Shown in pieces: positions 741 to 50,637 of a DNA stretch of 50,637 bases; positions within the stretch are counted from its first letter, which is position 1, and each line of letters begins with the position of its first letter. Under the pieces are notes generated by a model that saw only the letters and a list, made by a program, of their open reading frames with translations, did no database searches and was not told where the DNA came from. Source of the stretch: a virus; the IMG/VR virus record IMGVR_UViG_3300027800_000005; one strand, written 5' to 3'. A program made the position numbers and the translations under genes.

Positions 741-1919
741 ATGCTTGGTCCTGATAAGATAAAAGAAGCTCCATTGGCTATTCAGAAACTTATGCTCCAT
801 TTGCAGGATTATGGCATCAGAGACATCGCAAGACGCATTGCCAAAAATGGGAAAATAACTAGTAGTGCAGAGTATCAACTCACTACAATGATGGAGCAAG
901 ACATTTTCAATCGAAATTTTAAGGAAGATGTACGTAAAATATTAGGCATGACTGAAAAGCAGATTGACCAGATTTTTCGTCGAGCAGCAGAGGCAAATTA
1001 TATTTACGACAAACGTGCATTTTCTGAAAGAGGCATACCTTTTATACCTTTTGAAGATAATAATTTTATGCAGTCTATTACCAGGAATATTATTAACGTC
1101 ACTAAAGGTACGTTACAAAATATTACAAATAGCCTTGGTTTTGCAAAGAGAATAAATGGCCAATTATTATTTCAACCTATTGCAAGATTCTATCAATCAG
1201 AACTTGACTTGGCAACTACAAGTGTTGCAGCCGGGGTAAAGACATTTGATGGAGCATTAAAAGATGCTGTTCATAACATGGCAGACAGCGGTATAAGAAC
1301 TGTTGATTATGCAACCGGACATCAAGATAGAATTGATGTTGCTGCTCGTCGAGCGATGATGGGAGGCATGAGGAGTCTCACAAATAGTCAGAGTGATTAC
1401 AATTCTAACGTTATGGGTACTACAGTATATGAGATAAGCTGGCACGGTGGACATAGACCATCACATGCGTGGGGTGGCAGAAGATTCGATACAAAAGGGA
1501 TTTACTACCCGACAGAAGAACAACTATATGCAAAATATACCGCTCCTGATGGTACGATAGGTACCCTTGAAGATTACAATTGTTATCATGAGAAATACGC
1601 TATATTTCATGATGCTCCTCCTAAATATACAGACGAACAACTCAAAAAGATGTATGAGGAGCAACAGAGAAAAATAGAATACGAAGGAAAGGAGTACACT
1701 GAATATGAGGCAAGGCAACAGCAAAGATTTATGGAAAGGGTTATGAGGAGACAGAGGGGAGTGGTTGCTGGTTACGAGGGTGCAGTTGAGGGTGCTCAAG
1801 AAAATCAGATTCTTGTTGATGGCCTTCGTAATGAGAAAATAAAAATGCGAATACTCAGAAAACAATACAGGGACTTTAGCAGTGCTATGGGCATAGACCC
1901 AGAGTTTGAAAGATTGTAA
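741..1919 (+). CDS. Minor head / head-morphogenesis protein (MuF / SPP1 gp7-like, 'minor capsid protein 2' type).
   Basis: 392 aa, located downstream of the portal region and before the scaffold gene. Pattern-level resemblance to MuF-like minor capsid proteins (AARRAMMGG, EISWHGGHRPSHAWGGRRF). Basic coiled C-terminus. Confidence 0.65.
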   Translation: MLGPDKIKEAPLAIQKLMLHLQDYGIRDIARRIAKNGKITSSAEYQLTTMMEQDIFNRNFKEDVRKILGMTEKQIDQIFRRAAEANYIYDKRAFSERGIPFIPFEDNNFMQSITRNIINVTKGTLQNITNSLGFAKRINGQLLFQPIARFYQSELDLATTSVAAGVKTFDGALKDAVHNMADSGIRTVDYATGHQDRIDVAARRAMMGGMRSLTNSQSDYNSNVMGTTVYEISWHGGHRPSHAWGGRRFDTKGIYYPTEEQLYAKYTAPDGTIGTLEDYNCYHEKYAIFHDAPPKYTDEQLKKMYEEQQRKIEYEGKEYTEYEARQQQRFMERVMRRQRGVVAGYEGAVEGAQENQILVDGLRNEKIKMRILRKQYRDFSSAMGIDPEFERL

Positions 1920-2124: not shown

Positions 2125-2742
2125 ATGAACCGCGATTTTTTGAAAGGCCTCGGAATTGAGGGACTTACCAAAGAAGTTATCGACCAGATTATGGATGAAC
2201 ATGGTAAGACGGTAAACGCCAACAAGGCAGTAAGTGATGAGACCATCAAGCAATTAAACGAAAGTCTTAGCAAAAGGGCAGAGATTACTCCTGAGGATTA
2301 CACCAAGTTGAAAGGTGACTTTTCTGAAGCTACTAAAAAGCTTAAGGGATTTGACGGTATTGACGTGGTAAAGATTCAGGAAGATTTGGCCACAGCAAAA
2401 GGTAAGATTTCCGAGTTGGAAACGACTCACAGTGCTAAGATTTCAGAACTTGAAACCGATGCACTTCTGCGGGAGCACATGGCAAAGGTAGATTTCTCGT
2501 CAGACTATGCTAAAAAGGGTGTATACGAAGACCTTAAGTCAAAGGTCAAGTATGAGGCCGGCAAAGATGGTTCCATTGGAGCTTTGACCGGATTTGAAGA
2601 GGCACTGGAAGAAATTCGCAGTACTCAACCTTCGGCTTTCGTTTTGGAAGATTCTACTAAACAGAAGGCCAAAGACGAGGGAGCTAGACACAAAGGAAAT
2701 GACAATCAAAAACCAGCGAAAGAGATACCGTTACTTATTTGA
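2125..2742 (+). CDS. Scaffolding protein (Phage_GP20-like).
   Basis: N-terminus MNRDFLKGLGIEGLTKEVIDQIMDEHGK matches the GP20 scaffold signature. Charged coiled-coil composition, and the gene sits directly upstream of the capsid gene. RBS gagaggag. Confidence 0.8.
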   Translation: MNRDFLKGLGIEGLTKEVIDQIMDEHGKTVNANKAVSDETIKQLNESLSKRAEITPEDYTKLKGDFSEATKKLKGFDGIDVVKIQEDLATAKGKISELETTHSAKISELETDALLREHMAKVDFSSDYAKKGVYEDLKSKVKYEAGKDGSIGALTGFEEALEEIRSTQPSAFVLEDSTKQKAKDEGARHKGNDNQKPAKEIPLLI

Positions 2743-2765
2743 TTTTAGAAAGGAAATGACAAACA

Positions 2766-3884
2766 ATGGCAAGAATTGCATCATTATCCATTCTGCTTGA
2801 ACAAACAGGTCAAGATTACCTGTCCGAGCTTTATGGAAAAGTTATCGAGAACGTTGAAAAGGGTACTATTAGTGGTTTGCTGAAAAACACAGACCTTAGT
2901 GGTAACCCTATTGCAGGCACAGTTGAGGCAAAGCGTATCGCTTTTGCTGAAGCGCAGGCATATGGTACGGCACGCGCTGCCGGTGCAGGTGACAAAATCG
3001 TTGTCAGACCAGTCACTGTTCCTATTGACCAGGATAAGGAACTCGTTACCGAGATTGAGGAAAAAGACACCTCGCTTTACGGTGTTGAGGGTTTGCTCGA
3101 AAGACGTTCTGCAGAACACACCGCGTCTATGATTCGTGCGCTGGAAAAAGCTTTCTTCGCACAGGCCGCTACCGATGCTACCGCCATCACAAGTGCTACT
3201 ACCGATGCACAAGCGAGATTCGAGGAAGAGGTTTTGGCTATCGAAACCACTGCTAACGATTTTGTGAATGGCGTTCCGCGTTCGATGATTCACATCGTCA
3301 AAACTCCGCAAGAATATTCCAAACTTCGTCGCTGGATTAACACTGATTCTAACAATGCAAGTGTACTCTCAAACGTTGAGGAATTCGGACTTCTGAACGG
3401 CGTGCACGTATACTCCAGTATTGACCTCCCGACAGGGGTTGGTACTATTGGTATGTGCCAAGGCGCAATCGCAGAACCGGTCCTCCCCAAGGGTTACGAT
3501 GCAGAGAAGATTCAGTTGTCGAATGCGTACGCCCTCGAGCTGTTCTACAGCTACGGTATCAAGAGCGTTATGCCTGACCTGATTATCAAGAGAGCGTCTG
3601 ATACCGTCGTTGCAGTTACCGGTATTGCCCTTGACGAGAACACATTGACAATCGTCGATGAAGCCACCGACCTGCTGACAGCTACATTCACTCCTTCCAC
3701 CGCCACTGAACAGGGTGTTCTCTGGACCACAACTAACGCTGCTATTGCAACGGTTGCCGCTACGGTTGACCCGCTCATCGCCACTGTTACTGCGGTTGGT
3801 GTTGGTACTTGCAAAATCAAGGTTACTACCGATGACGGTGGTTACGTTGACGATTGCACCATCATTGTTACTTCTGGTACCTAA
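2766..3884 (+). CDS. Major capsid protein with a C-terminal Ig-like (Big_2-type) decoration domain.
   Basis: 372 aa, follows the scaffold gene. The C-terminal ~85 aa (VTGIALDENTLTI...TATFTP...VLWTTTN..IATV...G.VTAVGVGTCKIKVTTDDGGY) has the Big_2 pattern. Confidence 0.8.
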   Translation: MARIASLSILLEQTGQDYLSELYGKVIENVEKGTISGLLKNTDLSGNPIAGTVEAKRIAFAEAQAYGTARAAGAGDKIVVRPVTVPIDQDKELVTEIEEKDTSLYGVEGLLERRSAEHTASMIRALEKAFFAQAATDATAITSATTDAQARFEEEVLAIETTANDFVNGVPRSMIHIVKTPQEYSKLRRWINTDSNNASVLSNVEEFGLLNGVHVYSSIDLPTGVGTIGMCQGAIAEPVLPKGYDAEKIQLSNAYALELFYSYGIKSVMPDLIIKRASDTVVAVTGIALDENTLTIVDEATDLLTATFTPSTATEQGVLWTTTNAAIATVAATVDPLIATVTAVGVGTCKIKVTTDDGGYVDDCTIIVTSGT

Positions 3885-4086: not shown

Positions 4087-4476
4087 ATGGCTTATGCTAC
4101 AGTAGAGTTTTATCAAGACAGTTATCTGCTCGGCAGACGGCCTAAGTTACCTCTCACCGAATTTTCATATTGGGAACAGACTGCCAGGAGATTCATTGAC
4201 GACTATACTTTCAACAAGATAACAGAAGAGATTCTTGAAGGTGAGTATGGTGAGAAGATTAAACAATGTGTTTGCGAACTTTCTGAATACCTATACGTAA
4301 ATGAGGGAAACGAGAACAAACAGTCCGAAGGGATTCCAGGAAGAAGTGCTTCGTACCGACAGGGTACCGAATATTTCATTTGTCGTAGACATTTGGGATT
4401 GACAGGACTAATGCATAGGGGGTGTGAGTATGTTGTTTCCGAGGGATACAGCCTCGACGACGGTGACAGTATATAG
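4087..4476 (+). CDS. Head-tail connector / adaptor (gp6-like).
   Basis: AGGAGG at 4073-4078, then ATG at 4087 (the track start at 4078 is a GTG). The motif YATVEFYQDSYLLGR...LT..EF.YWEQTA..FID.YT is typical of head-tail connector proteins. Position is after the capsid gene. Confidence 0.65.
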   Translation: MAYATVEFYQDSYLLGRRPKLPLTEFSYWEQTARRFIDDYTFNKITEEILEGEYGEKIKQCVCELSEYLYVNEGNENKQSEGIPGRSASYRQGTEYFICRRHLGLTGLMHRGCEYVVSEGYSLDDGDSI

Positions 4477-4957
4477 CTACCTCCTCGTTAAAAACCAGGA
4501 CGGGGAAGATGCGGGTAAAACGTACAAGCGTACCGTACTCCCCGACTGCGTTTGGACACAAGATTCAGAGGCAAACTACAAAGCAACCGGTATTTTGAAT
4601 GCAGAGAATGTAAAGTTGCTTATCCCGTTTGATTCTGATTACTTTTCAGTTCAAGATGGTTCGGTGTTTGTGGGAGATGGGTGGACTGTTCAGATTGGCC
4701 CTGAACTGGTTGGCTCGTATATAGTTAAAGGTGAGTGCCTGTACGACTTTCCACCCTATCTCATTGAACAGGACGAACCAGCCGAAGTCCTCTATGATAT
4801 CCCTGAAGAGGAAGATGCTGGTGTGCTACAGGACATCGATTTCATCAGGACATACGTAGAACCATTTGAGGCACAGAACAAGTATAAGCGTCCCAAAGAA
4901 ATAATTGAGCATTTTGTCGGAAGCCGAAACCTTTGGTATATAGAGGTCAGGTGCTAA
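4430..4957 (+). CDS. Head-tail joining protein (hypothetical).
   Basis: ORF in the connector block. ATG at 4430 follows gggggtg. No diagnostic motif recognised. Confidence 0.55.
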   Translation: MLFPRDTASTTVTVYSYLLVKNQDGEDAGKTYKRTVLPDCVWTQDSEANYKATGILNAENVKLLIPFDSDYFSVQDGSVFVGDGWTVQIGPELVGSYIVKGECLYDFPPYLIEQDEPAEVLYDIPEEEDAGVLQDIDFIRTYVEPFEAQNKYKRPKEIIEHFVGSRNLWYIEVRC

Positions 4958-21054: not shown

Positions 21055-21083
21055 TTGACAAGGCATTATATCTGTGATATAAT
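21055..21083 (+). promoter_or_regulatory. Consensus promoter P2.
   Basis: TTGACA 21055-60, 17-bp spacer, TG 21075-76, TATAAT 21078-83. A 7-bp hairpin at 21092-21110 begins 9 nt after the -10 element. Confidence 0.8.
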
Positions 21084-23912: not shown

Positions 23913-24857
23913 ATGACTGATTATAATTCACCAGTGTTTATGGCAAAGGTTCTTGATGCATATAATATAGACTTTACGCAAAACAAGGTTGTTTGTCCTT
24001 TTCATGGTGACGTAAACCCCAGTATGAGTATTGACTTGGCAAAAAGCAGAGTATATTGTTTTGGGTGTCAAAAATCATATAGTGCTACACAATTCATAGA
24101 GGCTGCCGAACCAAAGATGAATAGACTACAAGTTTACAAGCGTATGGCAGAGATAGAAAACGGCATCAAGATTGACCTTAAACCACAACATATCAGAAAC
24201 AATAGTGATTGTGATTTCGTACAGTTGAGAATACAAGCAGAAGATTACTACTATAATCTACCAAAAACTGATTGGGCACATGGTGAGTGGACAGAAGAGC
24301 TTGACTATATGACCAAACGTGGTTTTACTACAGAGATTCTGAATAAATGTGGAGCTAAACTAAACTACAATGGCTGGTACCCGATTATTTTTCCTATAAT
24401 GGATAATGGAAAATTTAAAGGTTGGGTTTGTAGAACTACCAGAAAAGATATAGAGGCAAAAAGAAAGTACCTATACAATACTGGGTTCAGACGTTCTACG
24501 TGCGTGTGCGGGCGATACAACAGGGACAACCAGCTAATCGTAGTCGAGGGGTATATGGATATGCTTAAACTAAGGCAAGCAGGACTGACAAATGTTGTTG
24601 CATTGCTTGGTTGGAAGGCTAGTCAAGAGCAGGTTCAGATGATTAAAACTGTAGGCATTAAACACATTATTTCTGCATTGGACAATGACGAGAGTGGAAT
24701 TAAGGGCGATGCACATTTACGGACTTTAGGATTCGATTCAGTAGTGCGATGGCAGTTTGGTGCAGGCCATAAAGACCCTGGTGACCAGACAGCTAGCGAA
24801 ATAAAAAATATTTATAAAAAACTAAAAATAAGTGTTGACAAAGCAAATCGGATGTGA
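23913..24857 (+). CDS. dnaG: DNA primase (CHC2 zinc finger + TOPRIM).
   Basis: CPFHGDVNPSMSI....VYCFGCQ zinc finger. TOPRIM motifs VVEGYMD and DNDESG. Confidence 0.85.
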   Translation: MTDYNSPVFMAKVLDAYNIDFTQNKVVCPFHGDVNPSMSIDLAKSRVYCFGCQKSYSATQFIEAAEPKMNRLQVYKRMAEIENGIKIDLKPQHIRNNSDCDFVQLRIQAEDYYYNLPKTDWAHGEWTEELDYMTKRGFTTEILNKCGAKLNYNGWYPIIFPIMDNGKFKGWVCRTTRKDIEAKRKYLYNTGFRRSTCVCGRYNRDNQLIVVEGYMDMLKLRQAGLTNVVALLGWKASQEQVQMIKTVGIKHIISALDNDESGIKGDAHLRTLGFDSVVRWQFGAGHKDPGDQTASEIKNIYKKLKISVDKANRM

Positions 24858-24863
24858 TATAAT
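24835..24863 (+). promoter_or_regulatory. Consensus promoter P3, overlapping the primase 3' end.
   Basis: TTGACA 24835-40, 17-bp spacer, TG 24855-56, TATAAT 24858-63. An 8-bp hairpin at 24872-24894 begins 9 nt after the -10 element. Confidence 0.8.
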
Positions 24864-37852: not shown

Positions 37853-39029
37853 GATTGCATTATTGCTTGGTTTAGGGTTGTGTAATGGCGGTGCTCAAAC
37901 ATTAGCAAATGAGTGGAGTATAACACTTTCAGAGATTGGTATTGAACATAAGGTTTTCTATTATTCAGGGAAGGCATATGGAAATGAATGCAACAGTGGG
38001 AGAATTGCAGAACATTTTGTTGAGTTTGATAATTTTGTCGAATTAAAAAAAGAGATAGAACAATACGATGTGTGCTTTGTTTTTAGTACACCACTTATTA
38101 ACGACAAAAACCATCAAGATTTTGTTGATATGTTTATCGGACTCAATACCTATAAAATTGTATGCATAATTGATAGGAATAGAAACCCATTAAAATTAAA
38201 ACGGTGGAGCGAAGACGTTGTTAAGTCTGCAGACATTGTTTTTCATATAAGTGGAGAAGAACATAGTGGTTATAAATATATAGCCGAATGCAACAAAAAT
38301 ACTTTTCATGCAGACTTGAACTTGTATAATTGGTTGCCTTTTGAAAATATAGCTTTTGCAGACAAAAGGGGCTACATGAAAATTTCATTTATTGGTCGCT
38401 ATGTGGCACTTAAAGGGTATAAACAACTCATTAAAAATTATGATATGCTCCCAAAGAAATTTGCATATACCATTGAAGGTGGTTACTTTAAGTATCAAGA
38501 GCCAAACAGCATTTCATCTACTATAGGTATTTTAGCAGACATATGCAAAGATATTAAAACAAAAGAGCTAAAAGACGGCATTGTTATTCATTCAGACTAC
38601 AGTAAGTATTATGAAGATATTCTACAAAGAGGACTAATACATTTATATCCAAAGTATAAAAGAGAAGAAATGTTTGGTAGGGTAGCAACATCGCTTTTTA
38701 CGATTTATCCATATTGCAAAAAGCCAGGAATGTTTAGGGGTGCGATTGAATATACCGTTTTGGAGTCCATTCAGTTCGGTACTCCATGTATCTTGTCGAA
38801 TGATTATGGTATTGATTGTTATGTAAATGGCGTTCCTCTAATCGAACAAGATTGCGGCTTAATATTTTATGATAGCTTTACAGAATTGGATGATAAGATT
38901 CGTGAGTACTGCAGGAACTACGACAAGAACGTTGCTAAGATGCAGAAATGGTTTAGCGAGAATTATACTGCAAAAGAGAAATTGAAGAAAGTATTGCAAA
39001 TAATCAGAAAAGAAAAGGTTGACAAATAA
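37845..39029 (+). CDS. GT-B fold glycosyltransferase (GT4-like).
   Basis: The C-terminal region RGAIEYTVLESIQFGTPCILSNDYG resembles the GT4 E-x7-E / nucleotide-sugar binding region. Rossmann-like N-terminal half. Confidence 0.55.
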   Translation: MSKIALLLGLGLCNGGAQTLANEWSITLSEIGIEHKVFYYSGKAYGNECNSGRIAEHFVEFDNFVELKKEIEQYDVCFVFSTPLINDKNHQDFVDMFIGLNTYKIVCIIDRNRNPLKLKRWSEDVVKSADIVFHISGEEHSGYKYIAECNKNTFHADLNLYNWLPFENIAFADKRGYMKISFIGRYVALKGYKQLIKNYDMLPKKFAYTIEGGYFKYQEPNSISSTIGILADICKDIKTKELKDGIVIHSDYSKYYEDILQRGLIHLYPKYKREEMFGRVATSLFTIYPYCKKPGMFRGAIEYTVLESIQFGTPCILSNDYGIDCYVNGVPLIEQDCGLIFYDSFTELDDKIREYCRNYDKNVAKMQKWFSENYTAKEKLKKVLQIIRKEKVDK

Positions 39030-39047
39030 CTTAGTTTTTGATATAAT
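39019..39047 (+). promoter_or_regulatory. Consensus promoter P6, overlapping the glycosyltransferase 3' end.
   Basis: TTGACA 39019-24, 17-bp spacer, TG 39039-40, TATAAT 39042-47. Confidence 0.75.
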
Positions 39048-45066: not shown

Positions 45067-45537
45067 ATGAAAGAAAAACGGGTAGACAAGACCAACTATT
45101 ATCTTGACATCGCAGAGACTGTTTCAGAAAGGAGCACGTGCATAAGGCGAAAGTATGGTGCGATAATTGTCAAAGATGATTCTATTGTGTCGACTGGTTA
45201 CAATGGGAGTCCGAGAGGGAGTACCAACTGTACAGACATTGGCTCATGCGTTAGGCAAGAGCTAAACATCCCATCTGGTGAGAGATACGAATTGTGTAGG
45301 AGTGTTCATGCGGAGGCAAACGCTATCATAAACGCAAGTAGAGAACGCATGATTGGGAGCACACTATATTTGGTGTGTAGGCAAGGTGATATGTTAGGCA
45401 AGGCCGAATGTTGCATGATGTGTAAAAGAATGATTGTCAACAGCGGCATTACAAAAATAGTGATTCGGGTTACCGCCAACCAGTTTGAGATTCTTAATGT
45501 AGAGGATATCGTTAGGGGAGGCATACGTTATGAGTGA
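45067..45537 (+). CDS. dCMP deaminase.
   Basis: YNGSPRG, HAEANAI and CMMC give the zinc-binding H-A-E ... C-x2-C cytidine/deoxycytidylate deaminase motifs. Confidence 0.85.
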   Translation: MKEKRVDKTNYYLDIAETVSERSTCIRRKYGAIIVKDDSIVSTGYNGSPRGSTNCTDIGSCVRQELNIPSGERYELCRSVHAEANAIINASRERMIGSTLYLVCRQGDMLGKAECCMMCKRMIVNSGITKIVIRVTANQFEILNVEDIVRGGIRYE

Positions 45538-46080: not shown

Positions 46081-47481
46081 ATGGATAAAGGTTTAGCAAA
46101 ATTTCTTGCTGACAAGGGTTATACAGTGAACGATTCTATGTCGCAATATATTGCCTTATGGAAGGCATGGTACAAAGGTAAGGTTGGTGGTTTTCATAAC
46201 TACACCGTATTCAATGGTATTACCGATGTTCCAGTGACAAGAACTTCAATGCAGCTTGGCAAAGGTATATGCGAAGATTTAGCGAACCTTTTGTTCAATG
46301 AAAAGTGTATGGTAGCGGTTGACGATAAGGCTACAGATGATTATGTCAAAAACATTTTTGATGATAATAATGTATACGTTAAGCTCAATGAGAGCCAGGA
46401 GCATAAGGCAGCGTTTGGTACGGTAGCATATATTCCTTACTGGACGGATAAAGGTATTAAGATGAACTACATCACTGCTGAAAACATGATTCCGTTATCG
46501 TGGGATAATGGTGTTGTTACAGAGCTGTGTGTGTTTTCACCCACCATTGAGGATGGTAAAGAATATGTATTTGTGCAATTGTTTGAATTGGCAGAGAATG
46601 GTAACTACCTGATAGAGAACTTCTTGCTCAAGAGTGATAAGAATGGTAAAACTTATGGTGAGGTTGACTTTTCTAACATGCCAAACTATGAGAATGTCGA
46701 GAAAAAGGTAGACACAAAATCTACAGTAAAACCTTTTGTTGTCGATAGATTAAACATAGCCAATAACGTTGATATTGATAGCCCTATGGGTGTGGCTGTG
46801 TTTGCTAATGCATTAGACACCATGAAATTCATTGATACGGTATACGACAGTTATCGCAATGAGTTCGTGATGGGCAAGAAGAGAATTATGGTTGCTCCAG
46901 AGGCAATGAACATGAGGACTGGACAACCTGTTTTTGACCCTAACGATTTGATTTATTATCAATTACCAGAGAACATATCGAAAGATGGTCAGCCGTTTAT
47001 CAAAGAGATGGAAATGTCAATTAGGGCCAATGAACATCGCAGTGCATTACAAGATGGCCTTAATACGTTTAGCACGCAGTGTGGTTTGGGCAAGAATTAT
47101 TATAAATATACAGATGGTGGTCCTGCAACTGCCACTCAGGTTGTTAGTGAAAACAGTACGATGTTCAGAACATTGAAAAAGCACGAGATAATCCTTGAGT
47201 CGGTTATTGTGGACCTTATTACATTGTTGATTGATATAGGTATAAGGCATGGAGAAACGTCTCTTGTCAAAGAACCAGAGATAACTGTTACGTTTGATGA
47301 TTCTATCATCGAGGACAAGGAAAAGGAAATATCCAGGAAGATGGCAGAGGTGTCTGCTGGGTTATTGAGACCAGAGATTTACCTTGCGTGGCGGTATGGC
47401 ATAACAGAAAAGGAGGCACTGAAAATGATGCCAAAGGCTCCTACTGAAGAAAAAAATAAAAAGGAAGAGGGTATTGAGTGA
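46081..47481 (+). CDS. Portal protein (SPP1 gp6-like).
   Basis: 466 aa. Position is after terL. N-terminal ...YIALWKAWYKG....FH.Y is typical of Gp6-type portals. Confidence 0.85.
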   Translation: MDKGLAKFLADKGYTVNDSMSQYIALWKAWYKGKVGGFHNYTVFNGITDVPVTRTSMQLGKGICEDLANLLFNEKCMVAVDDKATDDYVKNIFDDNNVYVKLNESQEHKAAFGTVAYIPYWTDKGIKMNYITAENMIPLSWDNGVVTELCVFSPTIEDGKEYVFVQLFELAENGNYLIENFLLKSDKNGKTYGEVDFSNMPNYENVEKKVDTKSTVKPFVVDRLNIANNVDIDSPMGVAVFANALDTMKFIDTVYDSYRNEFVMGKKRIMVAPEAMNMRTGQPVFDPNDLIYYQLPENISKDGQPFIKEMEMSIRANEHRSALQDGLNTFSTQCGLGKNYYKYTDGGPATATQVVSENSTMFRTLKKHEIILESVIVDLITLLIDIGIRHGETSLVKEPEITVTFDDSIIEDKEKEISRKMAEVSAGLLRPEIYLAWRYGITEKEALKMMPKAPTEEKNKKEEGIE

Positions 47482-47969
47482 TGGCAGAACTAGAAGGTCG
47501 TTGGGTTACTATGAACGGTGCAAAGGTATTCATTAGTGCTCGGGGCGACGTTATCATGGGCTTAGGTGAGAACAACGTTATTGCACAAAATGCAGCATTT
47601 TCTTATAGTGACGATATGCAGTCGATTCATTCAAATGCAAAAGACGAGTTAACAAATAATGGTATAAATTTTAAGGAAAACTTCTATAAAAATGAAACAG
47701 CATTTATAATGTCGGACGGACATATTACTATTACAGATATGAAAGGTTTTTATTTGCTTAAAGGCGAGAAGACAACCGTTGTAAGAAGCGTGAGCCTTGC
47801 AGACCCAAAAGCTAAAGGTGGTGTAACTAATGCTCATAGAGATGTTAATAAAAAAATAAAGCTTTCTAAGGAATGTGGTACTGTTGCAGAAGTTAACAAA
47901 AGCATCTCTTCTTTTGTTACAAAAATTGTAGAAGAGAATAAAAATGAATGTAAATTTTGGAGGCGTTGA
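47481..47969 (+). CDS. Leader-family paralog C (unknown C-terminal domain).
   Basis: MAELEGRWVTMNGAKVFISARGDVIMGLG. The ATG shares one base with the portal stop (TGATG). Confidence 0.75.
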   Translation: MAELEGRWVTMNGAKVFISARGDVIMGLGENNVIAQNAAFSYSDDMQSIHSNAKDELTNNGINFKENFYKNETAFIMSDGHITITDMKGFYLLKGEKTTVVRSVSLADPKAKGGVTNAHRDVNKKIKLSKECGTVAEVNKSISSFVTKIVEENKNECKFWRR

Positions 47970-48000
47970 CTAGAGTTGTAGAACTGGATTATAATATTAG

Positions 48001-48029
48001 TTGACAAAGCAAACTAAGTGTGATATAAT
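48001..48029 (+). promoter_or_regulatory. Consensus promoter P9.
   Basis: TTGACA 48001-06, 17-bp spacer, TG 48021-22, TATAAT 48024-29. Confidence 0.8.
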
Positions 48030-48053
48030 ATTGATATGAAAGAAGGGTGCTTT

Positions 48054-48518
48054 ATGGCAGAACTTGAAGGTAAATGGGTAACTATTAATGGGGCACATGT
48101 ATTCGTGAGTAGTAGAGGCGATGTTGTGATGGGATTGGGCGCTCCTTTGTCCCAGGGTGCAAGGCATTATATGGACTCTCTTGTAGAGAAAAATGCAAAG
48201 ATTACAGAAGAAAAAACAGGAGATAAAAAAGCTGCATTGGCTAAAAAGAGATACATGAGAGAAATGCTAGACTCTCTTGAAGAAAAATATAATGAACTAA
48301 TGGCAAAAGCTGATAAAAATGGGCAAAGCGAATATGAGGGTTTTACAGATAATATAGAAAATAATTTGATTAAAGAAAACAGACAATTGCTTTTTAATAC
48401 CCAAAAGTTTAAAGATACTATGGGTAACGAATGGGATTCAGAGTATCATGATACATATGTCGACTATGAGCGGGCATTAAGGGAGAAAATGGCAAAGAAA
48501 TATGGTAGAAAGTTATAA
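48054..48518 (+). CDS. Leader-family paralog D (helical, charged C-terminal domain).
   Basis: MAELEGKWVTINGAHVFVSSRGDVVMGLG from the ATG at 48054 (the track start at 48036 is upstream of the RBS). Confidence 0.75.
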   Translation: MAELEGKWVTINGAHVFVSSRGDVVMGLGAPLSQGARHYMDSLVEKNAKITEEKTGDKKAALAKKRYMREMLDSLEEKYNELMAKADKNGQSEYEGFTDNIENNLIKENRQLLFNTQKFKDTMGNEWDSEYHDTYVDYERALREKMAKKYGRKL

Positions 48519-48527
48519 AAACATTAG

Positions 48528-48556
48528 TTGACAAAGTAGACTAAGTGTGATATAAT
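48528..48556 (+). promoter_or_regulatory. Consensus promoter P10, a near-duplicate of P9.
   Basis: TTGACA 48528-33, 17-bp spacer, TG 48548-49, TATAAT 48551-56. Confidence 0.8.
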
Positions 48557-48580
48557 AGTGATATGAGAGGAGGGTGCTTT

Positions 48581-49336
48581 GTGGCTGAACTTGACGGCAG
48601 GTGGGTAACAATGAACGGAGCAAAGGTTTTTATCTCGTCGAAAGGTGACGTAATAAAGGGTTTAGGTAGGAGCTACCACCTCAAAACTCTCAATGATGAG
48701 CAGATTGTAGATTTGCTAGAGAAACACTTGGATGACTACAAAAATGAGTTCGACCCAAGGTTTGTAAAACGAGGTGCTGGTTGCATCGCTATAATAGGTG
48801 ATGAATTAGGTGCCGGCCAATTACCAGAACTCATTACAGAGGATGAACTCGCAGAAGAGGTTGCTAACGGCGGAAAAGAATTATGGAGAGGGTTTGGCCA
48901 AGGCGGAGAAAAGAACGCAGAACAGTTTAAGACAGGAGAACTTTATGTTGGTAAAGGTTTGTACGGATGTGGAACATATACTACTCCTGATAAAGGCGTT
49001 GCAGAAATGTATTCAGGTAACAAACCCGACCCAAAGAGTATGGCACACATGGTGCTTAAGTCAGATGCAAGAATTGTAGAGTATGACGATATGCTTGGAG
49101 ATTACGAAAAAGGTATCACAAGAAATAACTTAATTGCAATTAAAAATGCAAGATATCCGGGTGTAGAAAGGTTTGTCACAGACGATTTGAAACATTTTAT
49201 ACACACTTTTACATTTGACGTTGGAGGAATTGGTTTACTTCAAGGCTATGATGCCATTAGGGTGAAAGATAATAAAACTTCGGCTGGAGACTATTACGTA
49301 ATTCTAAACAGAGGCGCATTAAAGGTGGTGAGATAA
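48581..49336 (+). CDS. Leader-family paralog B (same C-terminal domain as 12-740).
   Basis: The GTG start at 48581 follows gagaggaggg. (M)AELDGRWVTMNGAKVFISSKGDVIKGLG. C-terminal blocks are shared with paralog A. Confidence 0.75.
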   Translation: MAELDGRWVTMNGAKVFISSKGDVIKGLGRSYHLKTLNDEQIVDLLEKHLDDYKNEFDPRFVKRGAGCIAIIGDELGAGQLPELITEDELAEEVANGGKELWRGFGQGGEKNAEQFKTGELYVGKGLYGCGTYTTPDKGVAEMYSGNKPDPKSMAHMVLKSDARIVEYDDMLGDYEKGITRNNLIAIKNARYPGVERFVTDDLKHFIHTFTFDVGGIGLLQGYDAIRVKDNKTSAGDYYVILNRGALKVVR

Positions 49337-49560
49337 TGACTAAAGCTATGACACCGGAGTACAGCAGATTCGCTGGAAAACTCTTATATGCTACAAGATT
49401 GTTGATTTCGCGAGGAGTGAGTGAGAAACAGCATGACGAACTGACTAAACTCATTTTTAAGAATACGACAATATCAGGTTTGCATCAGGGAGTAAAAGAT
49501 TTGTTTTCTGTCGTACCGCCACAGATTGAGCAGTTGTTCAAGGACAAGGTCAATGGCTAA
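49336..49560 (+). CDS. Small hypothetical protein (74 aa) between leader-family genes.
   Basis: The ATG overlaps the upstream TAA (ATAATG). Confidence 0.5.
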   Translation: MTKAMTPEYSRFAGKLLYATRLLISRGVSEKQHDELTKLIFKNTTISGLHQGVKDLFSVVPPQIEQLFKDKVNG

Positions 49561-49816
49561 ACAGTGTCCGATAACTGATGGTTTTGCACTATACCTTGAT
49601 TGCCTTGAATGTGATGAGAGAAAACATTGTGCAGAACTTAGTTTAAGAAAGGAGCAGATAATGATGTTGAAGAATAAAAAGTCCCGTTTAGTAGAAGATG
49701 GTAAAGGTTTACAGATTGATAATAGTAAAGCGACAGGCAAATCTGTAAAGGAACTCATCGACGAGATGGAGTTATCAAGACTCAAAGAAAAAGGTAAGAA
49801 AACCAAACTACTGTAA
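49553..49816 (+). CDS. Small Cys-containing hypothetical protein (87 aa).
   Basis: ATG at 49553 (MAKQCPITDGFALYLDCLECDERKHC...). Lys-rich C-terminus. Confidence 0.45.
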   Translation: MAKQCPITDGFALYLDCLECDERKHCAELSLRKEQIMMLKNKKSRLVEDGKGLQIDNSKATGKSVKELIDEMELSRLKEKGKKTKLL

Positions 49817-49828
49817 GGGGTGTTTATT

Positions 49829-50506
49829 ATGGCTGATTCAGGAGCTCAAGATGGGAAATGGGTAACCATAAAGGGACACAAAGTTTTCCTTGAAGAAGGC
49901 AAAGAGGCAGATTCGTTAGATGATTGGTTTGCCGCTAAGGCCATACTAACACAGCTAAGAAAAGACAATGGCTATATGGAAGAACTTGAACAAGCAGAAC
50001 TTGATGCTAAAGACCATTTTTCTTCAGCAGTGGATTTATTGGACGCCGAATATAAGGTAGGGTTGCACTACGTACATAGTGGCGAATCGTTTGGACTAAA
50101 CAGTGCGTTGAGAAATGATACGTATTTGCAGAGCGGCACTATGAGTAAACAAGTGAAAGCACTTGATAGAGTTATGAGACCACTACCATACGATGTTGAA
50201 CTTTTTCGGGCAGTAGATGCAGACTTAGGTTGGTTTTCTCAAGTACGTGTAGGTTCAGAAATTACAGATAAAGCATTTATGAGTACTAGCGTTTTTGAAG
50301 ATGCTAATGTTTTTAAGAAACAAAGAGACGTATACATGCATATTAAAGTACCGAAAGGGCATAAAGCGTATGTTACAAACAATTACGCCGAGGGAGAGGT
50401 GGTTTTGTCGAGGGGTACTAAATACAAAGTAAATAGTATTACAGGAGACAATGCTACTTACGATAAATACAAAATAATACTTGATTGCGAAGTAATAGAT
50501 GATTAG
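49829..50506 (+). CDS. Leader-family paralog E: R-S-EXE ADP-ribosyltransferase (C3/VIP2/Alt-like).
   Basis: Diverged leader DGKWVTIKGHKVFL. NAD-fold motifs YVHSGESFGLNSALR, ELFRAV (Arg codon 50207-09), FMSTS (50282-90), AEGEVVLSRGTKYKV (E-G-E 50390-98). Confidence 0.8.
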   Translation: MADSGAQDGKWVTIKGHKVFLEEGKEADSLDDWFAAKAILTQLRKDNGYMEELEQAELDAKDHFSSAVDLLDAEYKVGLHYVHSGESFGLNSALRNDTYLQSGTMSKQVKALDRVMRPLPYDVELFRAVDADLGWFSQVRVGSEITDKAFMSTSVFEDANVFKKQRDVYMHIKVPKGHKAYVTNNYAEGEVVLSRGTKYKVNSITGDNATYDKYKIILDCEVIDD

Positions 50507-50510
50507 GGAG

Positions 50511-50637
50511 GGGGGGTAGACATGGCAGAGTTAGATGGACGTTGGGTAACGATGAACGGAGCCAGAGTATTTATCAATTCAAAGGGCGATGTTATTATGG
50601 GCCTCGGTAAAAGCTACCATACTAAAAAACTTAATGA
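50511..50637. repeat. Terminal overlap copy 2. It re-reads the RBS and first 116 nt of the ORF starting at 12.
   Basis: Exact identity to 1-127. The ATG at 50522 corresponds to the ATG at 12. Confidence 0.95.

Follow-up and report, generated by a model that had tools for sequence, protein, structure and literature searches.

In bacteriophage T4, unrelated internal proteins and Alt, all located in the head and injected, carry a short N-terminal capsid targeting sequence of ∼10 amino acids (aa) that binds the scaffold core and is cut off by the gp21 protease. Encapsulin cargo-loading peptides and the N-terminal loading signals of extracellular contractile injection systems (eCIS) and Photorhabdus virulence cassettes (PVC) are likewise short portable peptides, and the genes concerned adjoin those of the shell or particle. 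Outside T4, P1 and a few other models, we know of no account of how stand-alone effectors, such as ADP-ribosyltransferases (ARTs), enzymes against CBASS (cyclic oligonucleotide-based antiphage signalling system) and nucleases, enter phage heads. We analysed IMG/VR record IMGVR_UViG_3300027800_000005, a DNA of 50,637 nucleotides (nt), referred to here in its whole length as the window, in which five genes, named A–E, lie between those for the portal and a MuF-type minor head protein and begin with a common leader. With a probability of roughly one half, we propose that this array is a split polyvalent or MuF-toxin protein with one gene per module, and that the leader, a predicted hairpin, is a portable adaptor for virion loading and delivery. 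Polyvalent proteins are predicted, in the main text of Iyer, Burroughs, Anand, de Souza and Aravind (2017, PMC5512222), to be early effectors carried in the virion, and the texts of that paper and of a 2022 survey take ARTs encoded beside terminase or portal genes to be packaged in the head and injected (PMC9503650; PMC5512222).

The array shares with the polyvalent proteins, as the main text of PMC5512222 portrays them, a head and packaging neighbourhood (portal–terminase, confirmed here for A–E) and a part of their repertoire, namely ART-PolyVal-like and ART cargos in the array and Acb1, zincin and nuclease domains in other proteins that carry the leader motif; the motif itself is abundant inside polyvalent proteins. 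However, a polyvalent protein combines at least two disparate domains in one polypeptide, whereas each of A–E consists of the leader and one cargo only, encoded as a separate gene without covalent anchor, and the diversity lies in the array as a whole. With the MuF polymorphic toxins, as set out in the text of Jamet et al. (2017, PMC5576092), it has in common the MuF family, ADPrib_exo_Tox domains and small open reading frames (ORFs) nearby. Those toxins are C-terminal to a MuF domain, but the MuF protein of the window is short (392 aa, of which PF06152 spans residues 2–379) and has no C-terminal toxin extension; here the toxins are encoded upstream as separate genes with a leader, whereas the MuF–toxin fusions, seen only in relatives at 35–38% identity, have none. 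The analogy with T4 capsid targeting, drawn in an earlier model-made note based on the DNA letters and their translations (the sequence-only reading), holds for function only: there is no sequence similarity, the leader is longer, folded in prediction and also found at internal and C-terminal positions, and a prohead protease was not found in the gene lists of the head module of the window or of leader-bearing relatives. With encapsulins and eCIS/PVC the concept is the same, whereas sequences, structures and particles differ from those of the leader, and no homology is claimed. The array thus appears to belong with the phage polyvalent and MuF-toxin effectors, as a split-gene variant defined by an apparently undescribed hairpin.

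The starts of all five ORFs reported to share the leader (47481, 48054, 48581, 49829 and 12) were confirmed, and a hidden Markov model (HMM) of the leader, run against all six-frame ORFs of the window, matches these alone (E = 4e-23 to 7e-15; next E > 3). The common N-terminal leader is ∼26–30 aa long and reads MAEL[DE]G[RK]WVT[MI]NGA.VF[IV].S[KR]GDV[IV].GLG in A, B, C and E; D, already recognized as the more diverged copy, has DGKWVTIKGHKVFLEEGKE. Between A, B, C and E the leader DNA is 63–75% identical. Synonymous sites are saturated (pS 0.59–0.98) while pN is 0.10–0.25, and the codons of the invariant Thr are, as had been stated, ACT, ACT, ACA, ACC and ACG. It is therefore the peptide, not the DNA, that is conserved, under purifying selection, and the saturation of synonymous sites agrees with the earlier view that the leaders are not a recent duplication.

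AlphaFold, given 87 instances of the 31-aa motif as an alignment, predicts a hairpin with a short third strand (strands 6–11, 14–19 and 24–26; pLDDT, the predicted local distance difference test, 77–80 in all five models). The same three strands are found within the model of the E protein at lower confidence (pLDDT ∼50–55), where a low-confidence segment separates the hairpin strands from the cargo. In these models the leader is an autonomous mini-fold, separate from the cargo folds; its joining to unrelated cargos, its recurrence between head-protein domains and its folding alone in AlphaFold uphold the claim that it is independent of any enzymatic fold. The data demonstrate the module, its autonomy, distribution and genomic context, and the purifying selection on it.

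The hairpin appears to be unnamed and not described before, with no counterpart in Pfam, the PDB or such literature as can be searched. Pfam searches with eight leader variants gave nothing relevant at E <= 10, LPD families included, and a DUF5678 match (E = 0.13) was discarded. By profile search no PDB chain contains the motif, and Foldseek with the 31-aa model returned only non-significant hairpins (E >= 0.58), topped by the dextransucrase glucan-binding domain, Spr1274 and LytB. No description of it came up in the literature, whether by concept or by motif strings, which gave no match among 8 million papers; neither did targeted terms reveal one in the main text of Iyer et al. (PMC5512222), nor term searches of the main texts of Jamet et al. 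(PMC5576092) and of the 2022 NAD-ADPr survey (PMC9503650).

The same module is widespread in other phage proteins. An HMMER scan of 1.84 billion representative proteins with the leader motif gave 126 hits at E <= 1e-3, of which ∼115 are convincing carriers and ∼10 are repeat-protein false positives (P0031, P0038, P0042, P0049, P0055, P0058, P0066, P0078, P0082 and P0085). Such an exhaustive scan was required; a word-indexed search with the leader yielded one protein only. At its core the motif reads [acidic]-G-x-W-[VIR]-T-[IMV]-x-G-x-[HKR]-V-[FYL]-[IV]-x2-3-G, and a short third strand or helix comes next. Carriers are of two kinds: small proteins in which the motif is N-terminal or nearly so, and proteins of 800–2475 aa with 2–7 copies spaced 150–500 aa apart. 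In the latter the linkers that hold the motif are acidic or of low complexity; an acidic run comes before it, and after it either G.V..GP..L.GK or a helix-like tail, EGE.P..A..R.L, and then a low-complexity linker. Pfam maps place it directly after Phage_portal, Phage_Mu_F and DUF2213, and 15–60 aa upstream of ADPrib_exo_Tox, ART-PolyVal and PARP domains; among the other domains of carriers are Peptidase_S78, Acb1, an ATLF-type zincin, a 2H ligase-type domain and ParBc_2. P0011, for example, consists of Phage_portal, two motifs, ART-PolyVal, a further motif and a C-terminal region that by eye is like an R-S-E ART, and P0020 of Phage_portal, two motifs, Phage_Mu_F, a motif and an ATLF-type zincin. 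Simpler arrangements are seen in P0030 (DUF2213 protease, two motifs), P0022 (two motifs, ADPrib_exo_Tox, Acb1, motif), P0034 (four motifs, PARP) and P0048 (motif, Phage_Mu_F, motif). These large carriers are polyvalent proteins in the sense of the main text of Iyer et al. (PMC5512222).

A 573-aa protein (L001/L002, 4675–6396) has an N-terminal half that is prohead-protease-like by eye and a hairpin at residue 445, which precedes a small C-terminal domain. With DUF2213 and S78 present in other carriers as well, this protein suggests that prohead proteases can also serve as the anchor. A stand-alone 41-aa protein (MEVKGRWVTMNGAKVFITDKGDVVMGLGKGD...; L003–L005, 8001–8126) is little more than the leader. 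A PcrA/UvrD Tudor match in P0071, located by sequence pattern, proved to be a separate cargo and not the motif. Similarly, tblastn with P0037 matched 260 cultured phages, but in the two loci inspected the match was not to the hairpin but to another domain on the portal C-terminus, 2H-phosphoesterase-like by its HxT motifs. A tblastn search of 50,697 phage records with the 33-aa consensus gave no match, the query being too short for that database.

The cargos of A–E fall into four sequence classes: A, B, C/E and D. This bears out the proposal of at least four different C-terminal domains as far as sequence classes are concerned, with the reservation that C and E are paralogues and that the C/E and D cargos probably both have an ART fold. 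The D cargo is the only one with a Pfam match, to PF03496 (1e-15; 58 bits against a gathering cut-off of 23.4). It has the motifs LFR127, STS152–154 and E188-G-E190 (ExE188–190), and its PDB relatives are iota toxin Ia and CdtA; D is, as judged from these sequence features, an R-S-E ART. C and E are 55% identical, have few homologues and have no Pfam match (ART-PolyVal is PF18760). The AlphaFold model of E (pLDDT 73.6) matches domains inside phage proteins of 664–1499 aa in BFVD (E = 1.5e-12 to 2e-4), among them proteins named 'Capsid maturation protease and MuF-like fusion protein', 'PolyVal ADP-ribosyltransferase' and 'Phage head morphogenesis domain'; PolyVal-ART proteins are matched at E = 2e-4 and 8e-3. 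Solved structures are matched only weakly, with the anti-CRISPR 6kyf, which we take to be AcrIF11, an ART, at E = 0.065 and PARPs at 0.4–1. R103 and T-Y-T 132–134 are conserved in C/E, whereas the acidic catalytic position is not. On the strength of the model we call the C/E cargo ART-PolyVal-like with a putative catalytic site. A profile-comparison score of 98.6% between C/E and D-type ARTs was rejected as driven by the leader; since the cargo-only hhalign probability is 4%, sequence homology between the C/E and D cargos is not established. A and B have no match in Pfam, PHROG, NCBIfam or PDB sequences. The array therefore carries two cargos without a family match, two paralogous ones that are predicted to be ART-PolyVal-like and one predicted R-S-E ART.

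In close relatives, near-identical leaders are joined to at least ten different cargos, including R-S-E-type ART-like, C/E-type, HExxH zincin and DUF3990-like domains and several without assignment, which answers the suggested survey of related phages for other cargo; PF03496 matches five of the 62 small and mid-size carriers. Relatives with a 63–70% identical MuF keep the order portal, leader–cargo genes, MuF, and vary in the number (1–5) and cargos of the genes in this slot. Two are present in L040–42 (a 223-aa protein with an internal motif and a 412-aa leader–ART) and one in L043–45 (221 aa, with a cargo that is R-S-E-type ART-like by its motifs as read by eye), which also have a 126-aa motif protein after MuF; L048 has two leader genes, which differ in tail subtype, and a further one after MuF. 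Genes with an N-terminal motif are also present in four unrelated IMG/VR phages: between TerL and portal in L106 and L109, close to Phage_Mu_F in L115 and close to an SU10-type capsid gene in L121. Phage copies of the motif are thus tightly linked to head and packaging genes. The leader was not found in thirty IMG/VR loci whose portals are 24–45% identical to that of the window. MuF homologues at 35–38% identity are fusions of 430–680 aa that carry toxins (PF03496, PF18810, PF15542, PF15644, PF15640 and PF18451) and no hairpin, so that MuF–toxin fusion and leader-tagged separate genes look like alternative solutions in that lineage. Seven of these fusions (P0186, P0201, P0218, P0222, P0232, P0249 and P0251) share the string QQRERVTIDGLGNIGxGKW at about residues 375–395, at the end of the MuF domain, and the short MuF of the window ends (...GIDPEFERL) just before the equivalent position. 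The RVTIDG...GLG string of the fusions vaguely echoes the leader, which may be coincidence.

Our results are consistent with a model in which the five genes would be the disaggregated form of effectors that other tailed phages make as a single polypeptide. In the fused proteins the hairpin stands between each cargo domain and the anchor inside the head, which is a portal, MuF or prohead protease, and in the window phage it is the only element common to otherwise unrelated cargos. It may then couple each cargo to the head-internal delivery apparatus, be this portal/MuF/scaffold or the capsid interior. The cargos, ARTs and others, would be synthesized together with the head proteins, enter the prohead and leave it with the DNA, to act early in infection. 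A modular effector cassette beside portal and MuF fits because the motif is portable, has a predicted fold of its own, stands in a head-gene context and is joined to at least three cargos of the effector-type ART kind, in agreement with what PMC9503650 and PMC5512222 hold of head-packaged ARTs. Of the earlier proposal of a modular cassette of virion-delivered effectors, the modular tag and the effector cargos beside portal and MuF are borne out; loading into the virion is plausible.

The locus supports this placement. Positions 1–127 exactly repeat 50511–50637, and because of this 127-nt terminal overlap the window is taken as a circular assembly of a ∼50.5-kb phage genome. Since the assembly is circular, E, split across the junction, directly follows D; its 5′ end is present twice, the second copy at 50522–50637. 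Seven public metagenome contigs carry this same genome. Neither megablast of the region nor tblastn of protein E against 50,697 phage records gave a match, and the window phage is therefore not a known cultured phage. The order of genes is TerS, a 3D-domain protein, TerL, dCMP deaminase, portal, A, B, C, orf74, orf87, D, E and MuF, followed by scaffold (PF06810) and a major capsid protein with a Big_2 domain; the families flanking the array (Table 1) confirm the reported slot between portal and MuF-like gene. The head module is SPP1-like, with a scaffold, in the window and in all leader-bearing relatives. The TGA stop of the portal gene and the ATG of A overlap by 1 nt, and translation of A is coupled to that of the portal. 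The GTG start of C agrees with public gene calls, and the TAA stop of E directly abuts the ATG of MuF.

Table 1. Positions of the leader genes, their neighbours and two promoters in the window
Feature	Position	Strand	Remarks
Portal, SPP1 gp6-like	46081..47481	+	PF05133 at 2e-21; phrog_533 at 6e-115
Leader gene A, 162 aa	47481..47969	+	Leader 47481–47567, then 131-aa cargo, no known fold
Perfect sigma-70 consensus promoter, TTGACA-17-TATAAT with TG	48001..48029	+	Upstream of B
Leader gene B, 154 aa	48054..48518	+	Leader 48054–48140, then charged Lys/Glu-rich cargo
Second perfect consensus promoter	48528..48556	+	Upstream of C
Leader gene C, 251 aa, GTG start	48581..49336	+	Leader 48581–48667; cargo predicted to be ART-PolyVal-like
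orf74, small, leaderless	49336..49560	+	Start overlaps C stop by 1 nt
orf87, small Cys-rich, leaderless	49553..49816	+	Homologues beside leader genes in related phages
Leader gene D, 225 aa	49829..50506	+	Diverged leader 49829–49906; predicted R-S-E ART cargo, PF03496
Leader gene E, 242 aa	12..740	+	Leader 12–98; cargo predicted to be ART-PolyVal-like
MuF-type minor head protein, Phage_min_cap2	741..1919	+	PF06152 ('Phage minor capsid protein 2') at 1e-71

The motif is also found outside phages. A degenerate DNA pattern of its core located 55 loci in GTDB genomes (L051–L105), ∼38 of them from Melainabacteria/Gastranaerophilales metagenome-assembled genomes. In Melainabacteria the hairpin forms the extreme C-terminus, where an S/K-rich linker is followed by G[RKH]WVTINGNHVFIE[DK] and the stop codon, and the N-terminal domains of these proteins are Lipase_3, GH108, Peptidase_M15_3, DUF6973 or an esterase. 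There are several such genes per genome, some of them in tandem with genes for small membrane proteins. In the complete chromosome L078, two tagged lipase genes (2336–3388 and 4121–4930), each beside an oppositely oriented gene for a small membrane protein, lie between nrdDG-like and decarboxylase-type genes as read from the ORFs, outside any prophage. Stop-codon recoding was considered for these tags and rejected: all three stops are used and no reading frame continues past them. This looks like an effector–immunity family with a terminal tag, which may be undescribed. The tags support the hairpin as a delivery-related adaptor, whose role need not be specific to capsids. Tentatively, the hairpin could be a general portable loading or delivery signal, read by a conserved feature of DNA-containing capsids or by the hairpins themselves so that effectors are loaded and organized, and co-opted in Melainabacteria as a C-terminal export or delivery tag of an effector–immunity family. 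In that case injected phage effectors might be recognizable in metagenomes from the motif by itself, and it might serve to load chosen proteins into phage heads.

Several observations weigh against the split-effector model. Encapsidation of A–E, a binding partner and ejection are steps that we infer. The motif is repeated inside proteins already covalently anchored to portal or MuF, and, because such an anchor already guarantees encapsidation, a simple loading tag does not explain the internal copies; the hairpin may instead, or also, organize or tether long polyproteins, mark processing sites, self-associate or act in ejection. No single conserved partner is evident, since the anchors that occur with the motif are unrelated (SPP1-type and HK97-type portals, MuF, and S78 and DUF2213 proteases). 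In L049 and L050, whose MuF is 47–53% identical, the portal is followed directly by MuF without leader genes, and the cassette is therefore accessory and dispensable for assembly. B and C have consensus promoters of their own, so that their expression may not strictly follow the head operon. Finally, the stand-alone 41-aa leader peptide is encoded in a replication/early region of another phage, after a PemK-like toxin gene and far from head genes, and in Melainabacteria the same hairpin is C-terminal on chromosomal lipase and peptidoglycan-hydrolase genes outside prophages.

It seems unlikely that the hairpin is instead a processing signal, which would show a protease (a prohead enzyme or a cargo zincin) where domains meet and would be a removable propeptide on the stand-alone genes, like the T4 capsid targeting sequence. 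The motif does lie exactly at domain boundaries in disordered linkers, an ATLF-type zincin occurs in the same protein as the motif, Peptidase_S78 and DUF2213 are found in carriers, the leader protein P0131 carries an HExxH zincin, and zincin-mediated cutting of polyvalent proteins is proposed in the main text of Iyer et al. (PMC5512222). However, the portal–MuF–scaffold–capsid modules of the window and of leader-bearing relatives have no prohead protease in their gene lists, which, the head module being SPP1-like, makes prohead-protease processing unlikely in this lineage; the conserved residues are those of a folded hairpin in the AlphaFold models rather than of a typical extended cleavage site, and cleavage at the very C-terminal Melainabacteria motif would release nothing. 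Self-association, in which hairpins of different modules would pair into a small β-sheet or solenoid, in the manner of choline/glucan-binding repeats, and so bundle the cargos, within one polyvalent protein or between the products of A–E, is in our view quite unlikely. The sequence pattern and predicted hairpin resemble single cell-wall or choline-binding repeats: the G-W-x-x-x-x-G-x-aromatic/aliphatic hairpin pattern is common to CW_binding_1 and the leader, choline-binding-type repeats are the main HMM false positives (P0066) and the top non-significant Foldseek matches, and there are usually at least two copies per protein or locus. Nevertheless, the leader does not match Pfam CW_binding even at E = 10 (nor any relevant family at E <= 10), its Foldseek matches stay at E >= 0.58, its copies are solitary and hundreds of residues apart rather than in tandem, and many phages have a single tagged gene.

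Alternatively, the hairpin could be a target-side module that binds a common host component (envelope, nucleic acid or protein hub) after delivery and has nothing to do with loading. The stand-alone leader peptide outside the head module would fit this, as would the tag at the end of lipase, GH108, M15 and DUF6973 proteins with immunity-like neighbours in non-phage Melainabacteria chromosomes; the tight linkage of phage copies to head and packaging genes speaks against it. A single shared target is unlikely because the cargo substrates differ (proteins, nucleotides, lipids and peptidoglycan) and the hosts are as diverse as Firmicutes-type bacteria, Acidobacteria and Melainabacteria, and we regard this alternative as very doubtful. 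That the leader is an inert linker or a DNA-level artefact of recent duplication, gene conversion or a cassette-shuffling recombination hotspot, the peptide having no role, is barely credible. Promoter and ribosome-binding-site (RBS) blocks of ∼62 nt before B and C are ∼93% identical, so that some DNA-level copying took place, but the leader codons right after them are only 63% identical. The codons are synonymously saturated while the peptide is conserved, a dN/dS pattern that excludes recent duplication or gene conversion of the leader, and conservation of the motif spans phyla, whether it stands at the N-terminus, internally or at the C-terminus.

If the proposed adaptor role is correct, this short and widely distributed tag would be a sequence handle by which anti-defence and takeover proteins delivered by the virions of uncultured phages could be found. 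The interconversion of split cassettes with polyvalent proteins would likewise be explained, there would be a candidate tag with which to fill capsids with proteins of choice, and phage effectors would be linked to a possible effector–immunity family in Melainabacteria.

The window contains six perfect TTGACA-17-TATAAT sites, against 0.12 expected by chance, most of them with an extended −10 TG; all are on the + strand, and the four not listed in Table 1 lie at 1929–1957, 21055–21083, 24835–24863 and 39019–39047. When compared with immunity ORFs, orf74 and orf87 are found to sit upstream of the toxin-type gene D. The former could encode an immunity or accessory protein, and the Cys-rich product of the latter could be an immunity protein, a chaperone or a zinc-ribbon partner. 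Homologues of orf87 accompany leader genes in L038 (1577–1729, adjoining a leader–ART gene), L043–45 (L043, 4018–4257) and L048 (9066–9278). In L043 and L048 a PF14206 Cys_rich_CPCC gene follows the motif-bearing gene downstream of MuF. The dCMP/cytidine deaminase gene between the large terminase and portal genes of the window lies at 45067–45537 and is followed by two small ORFs.

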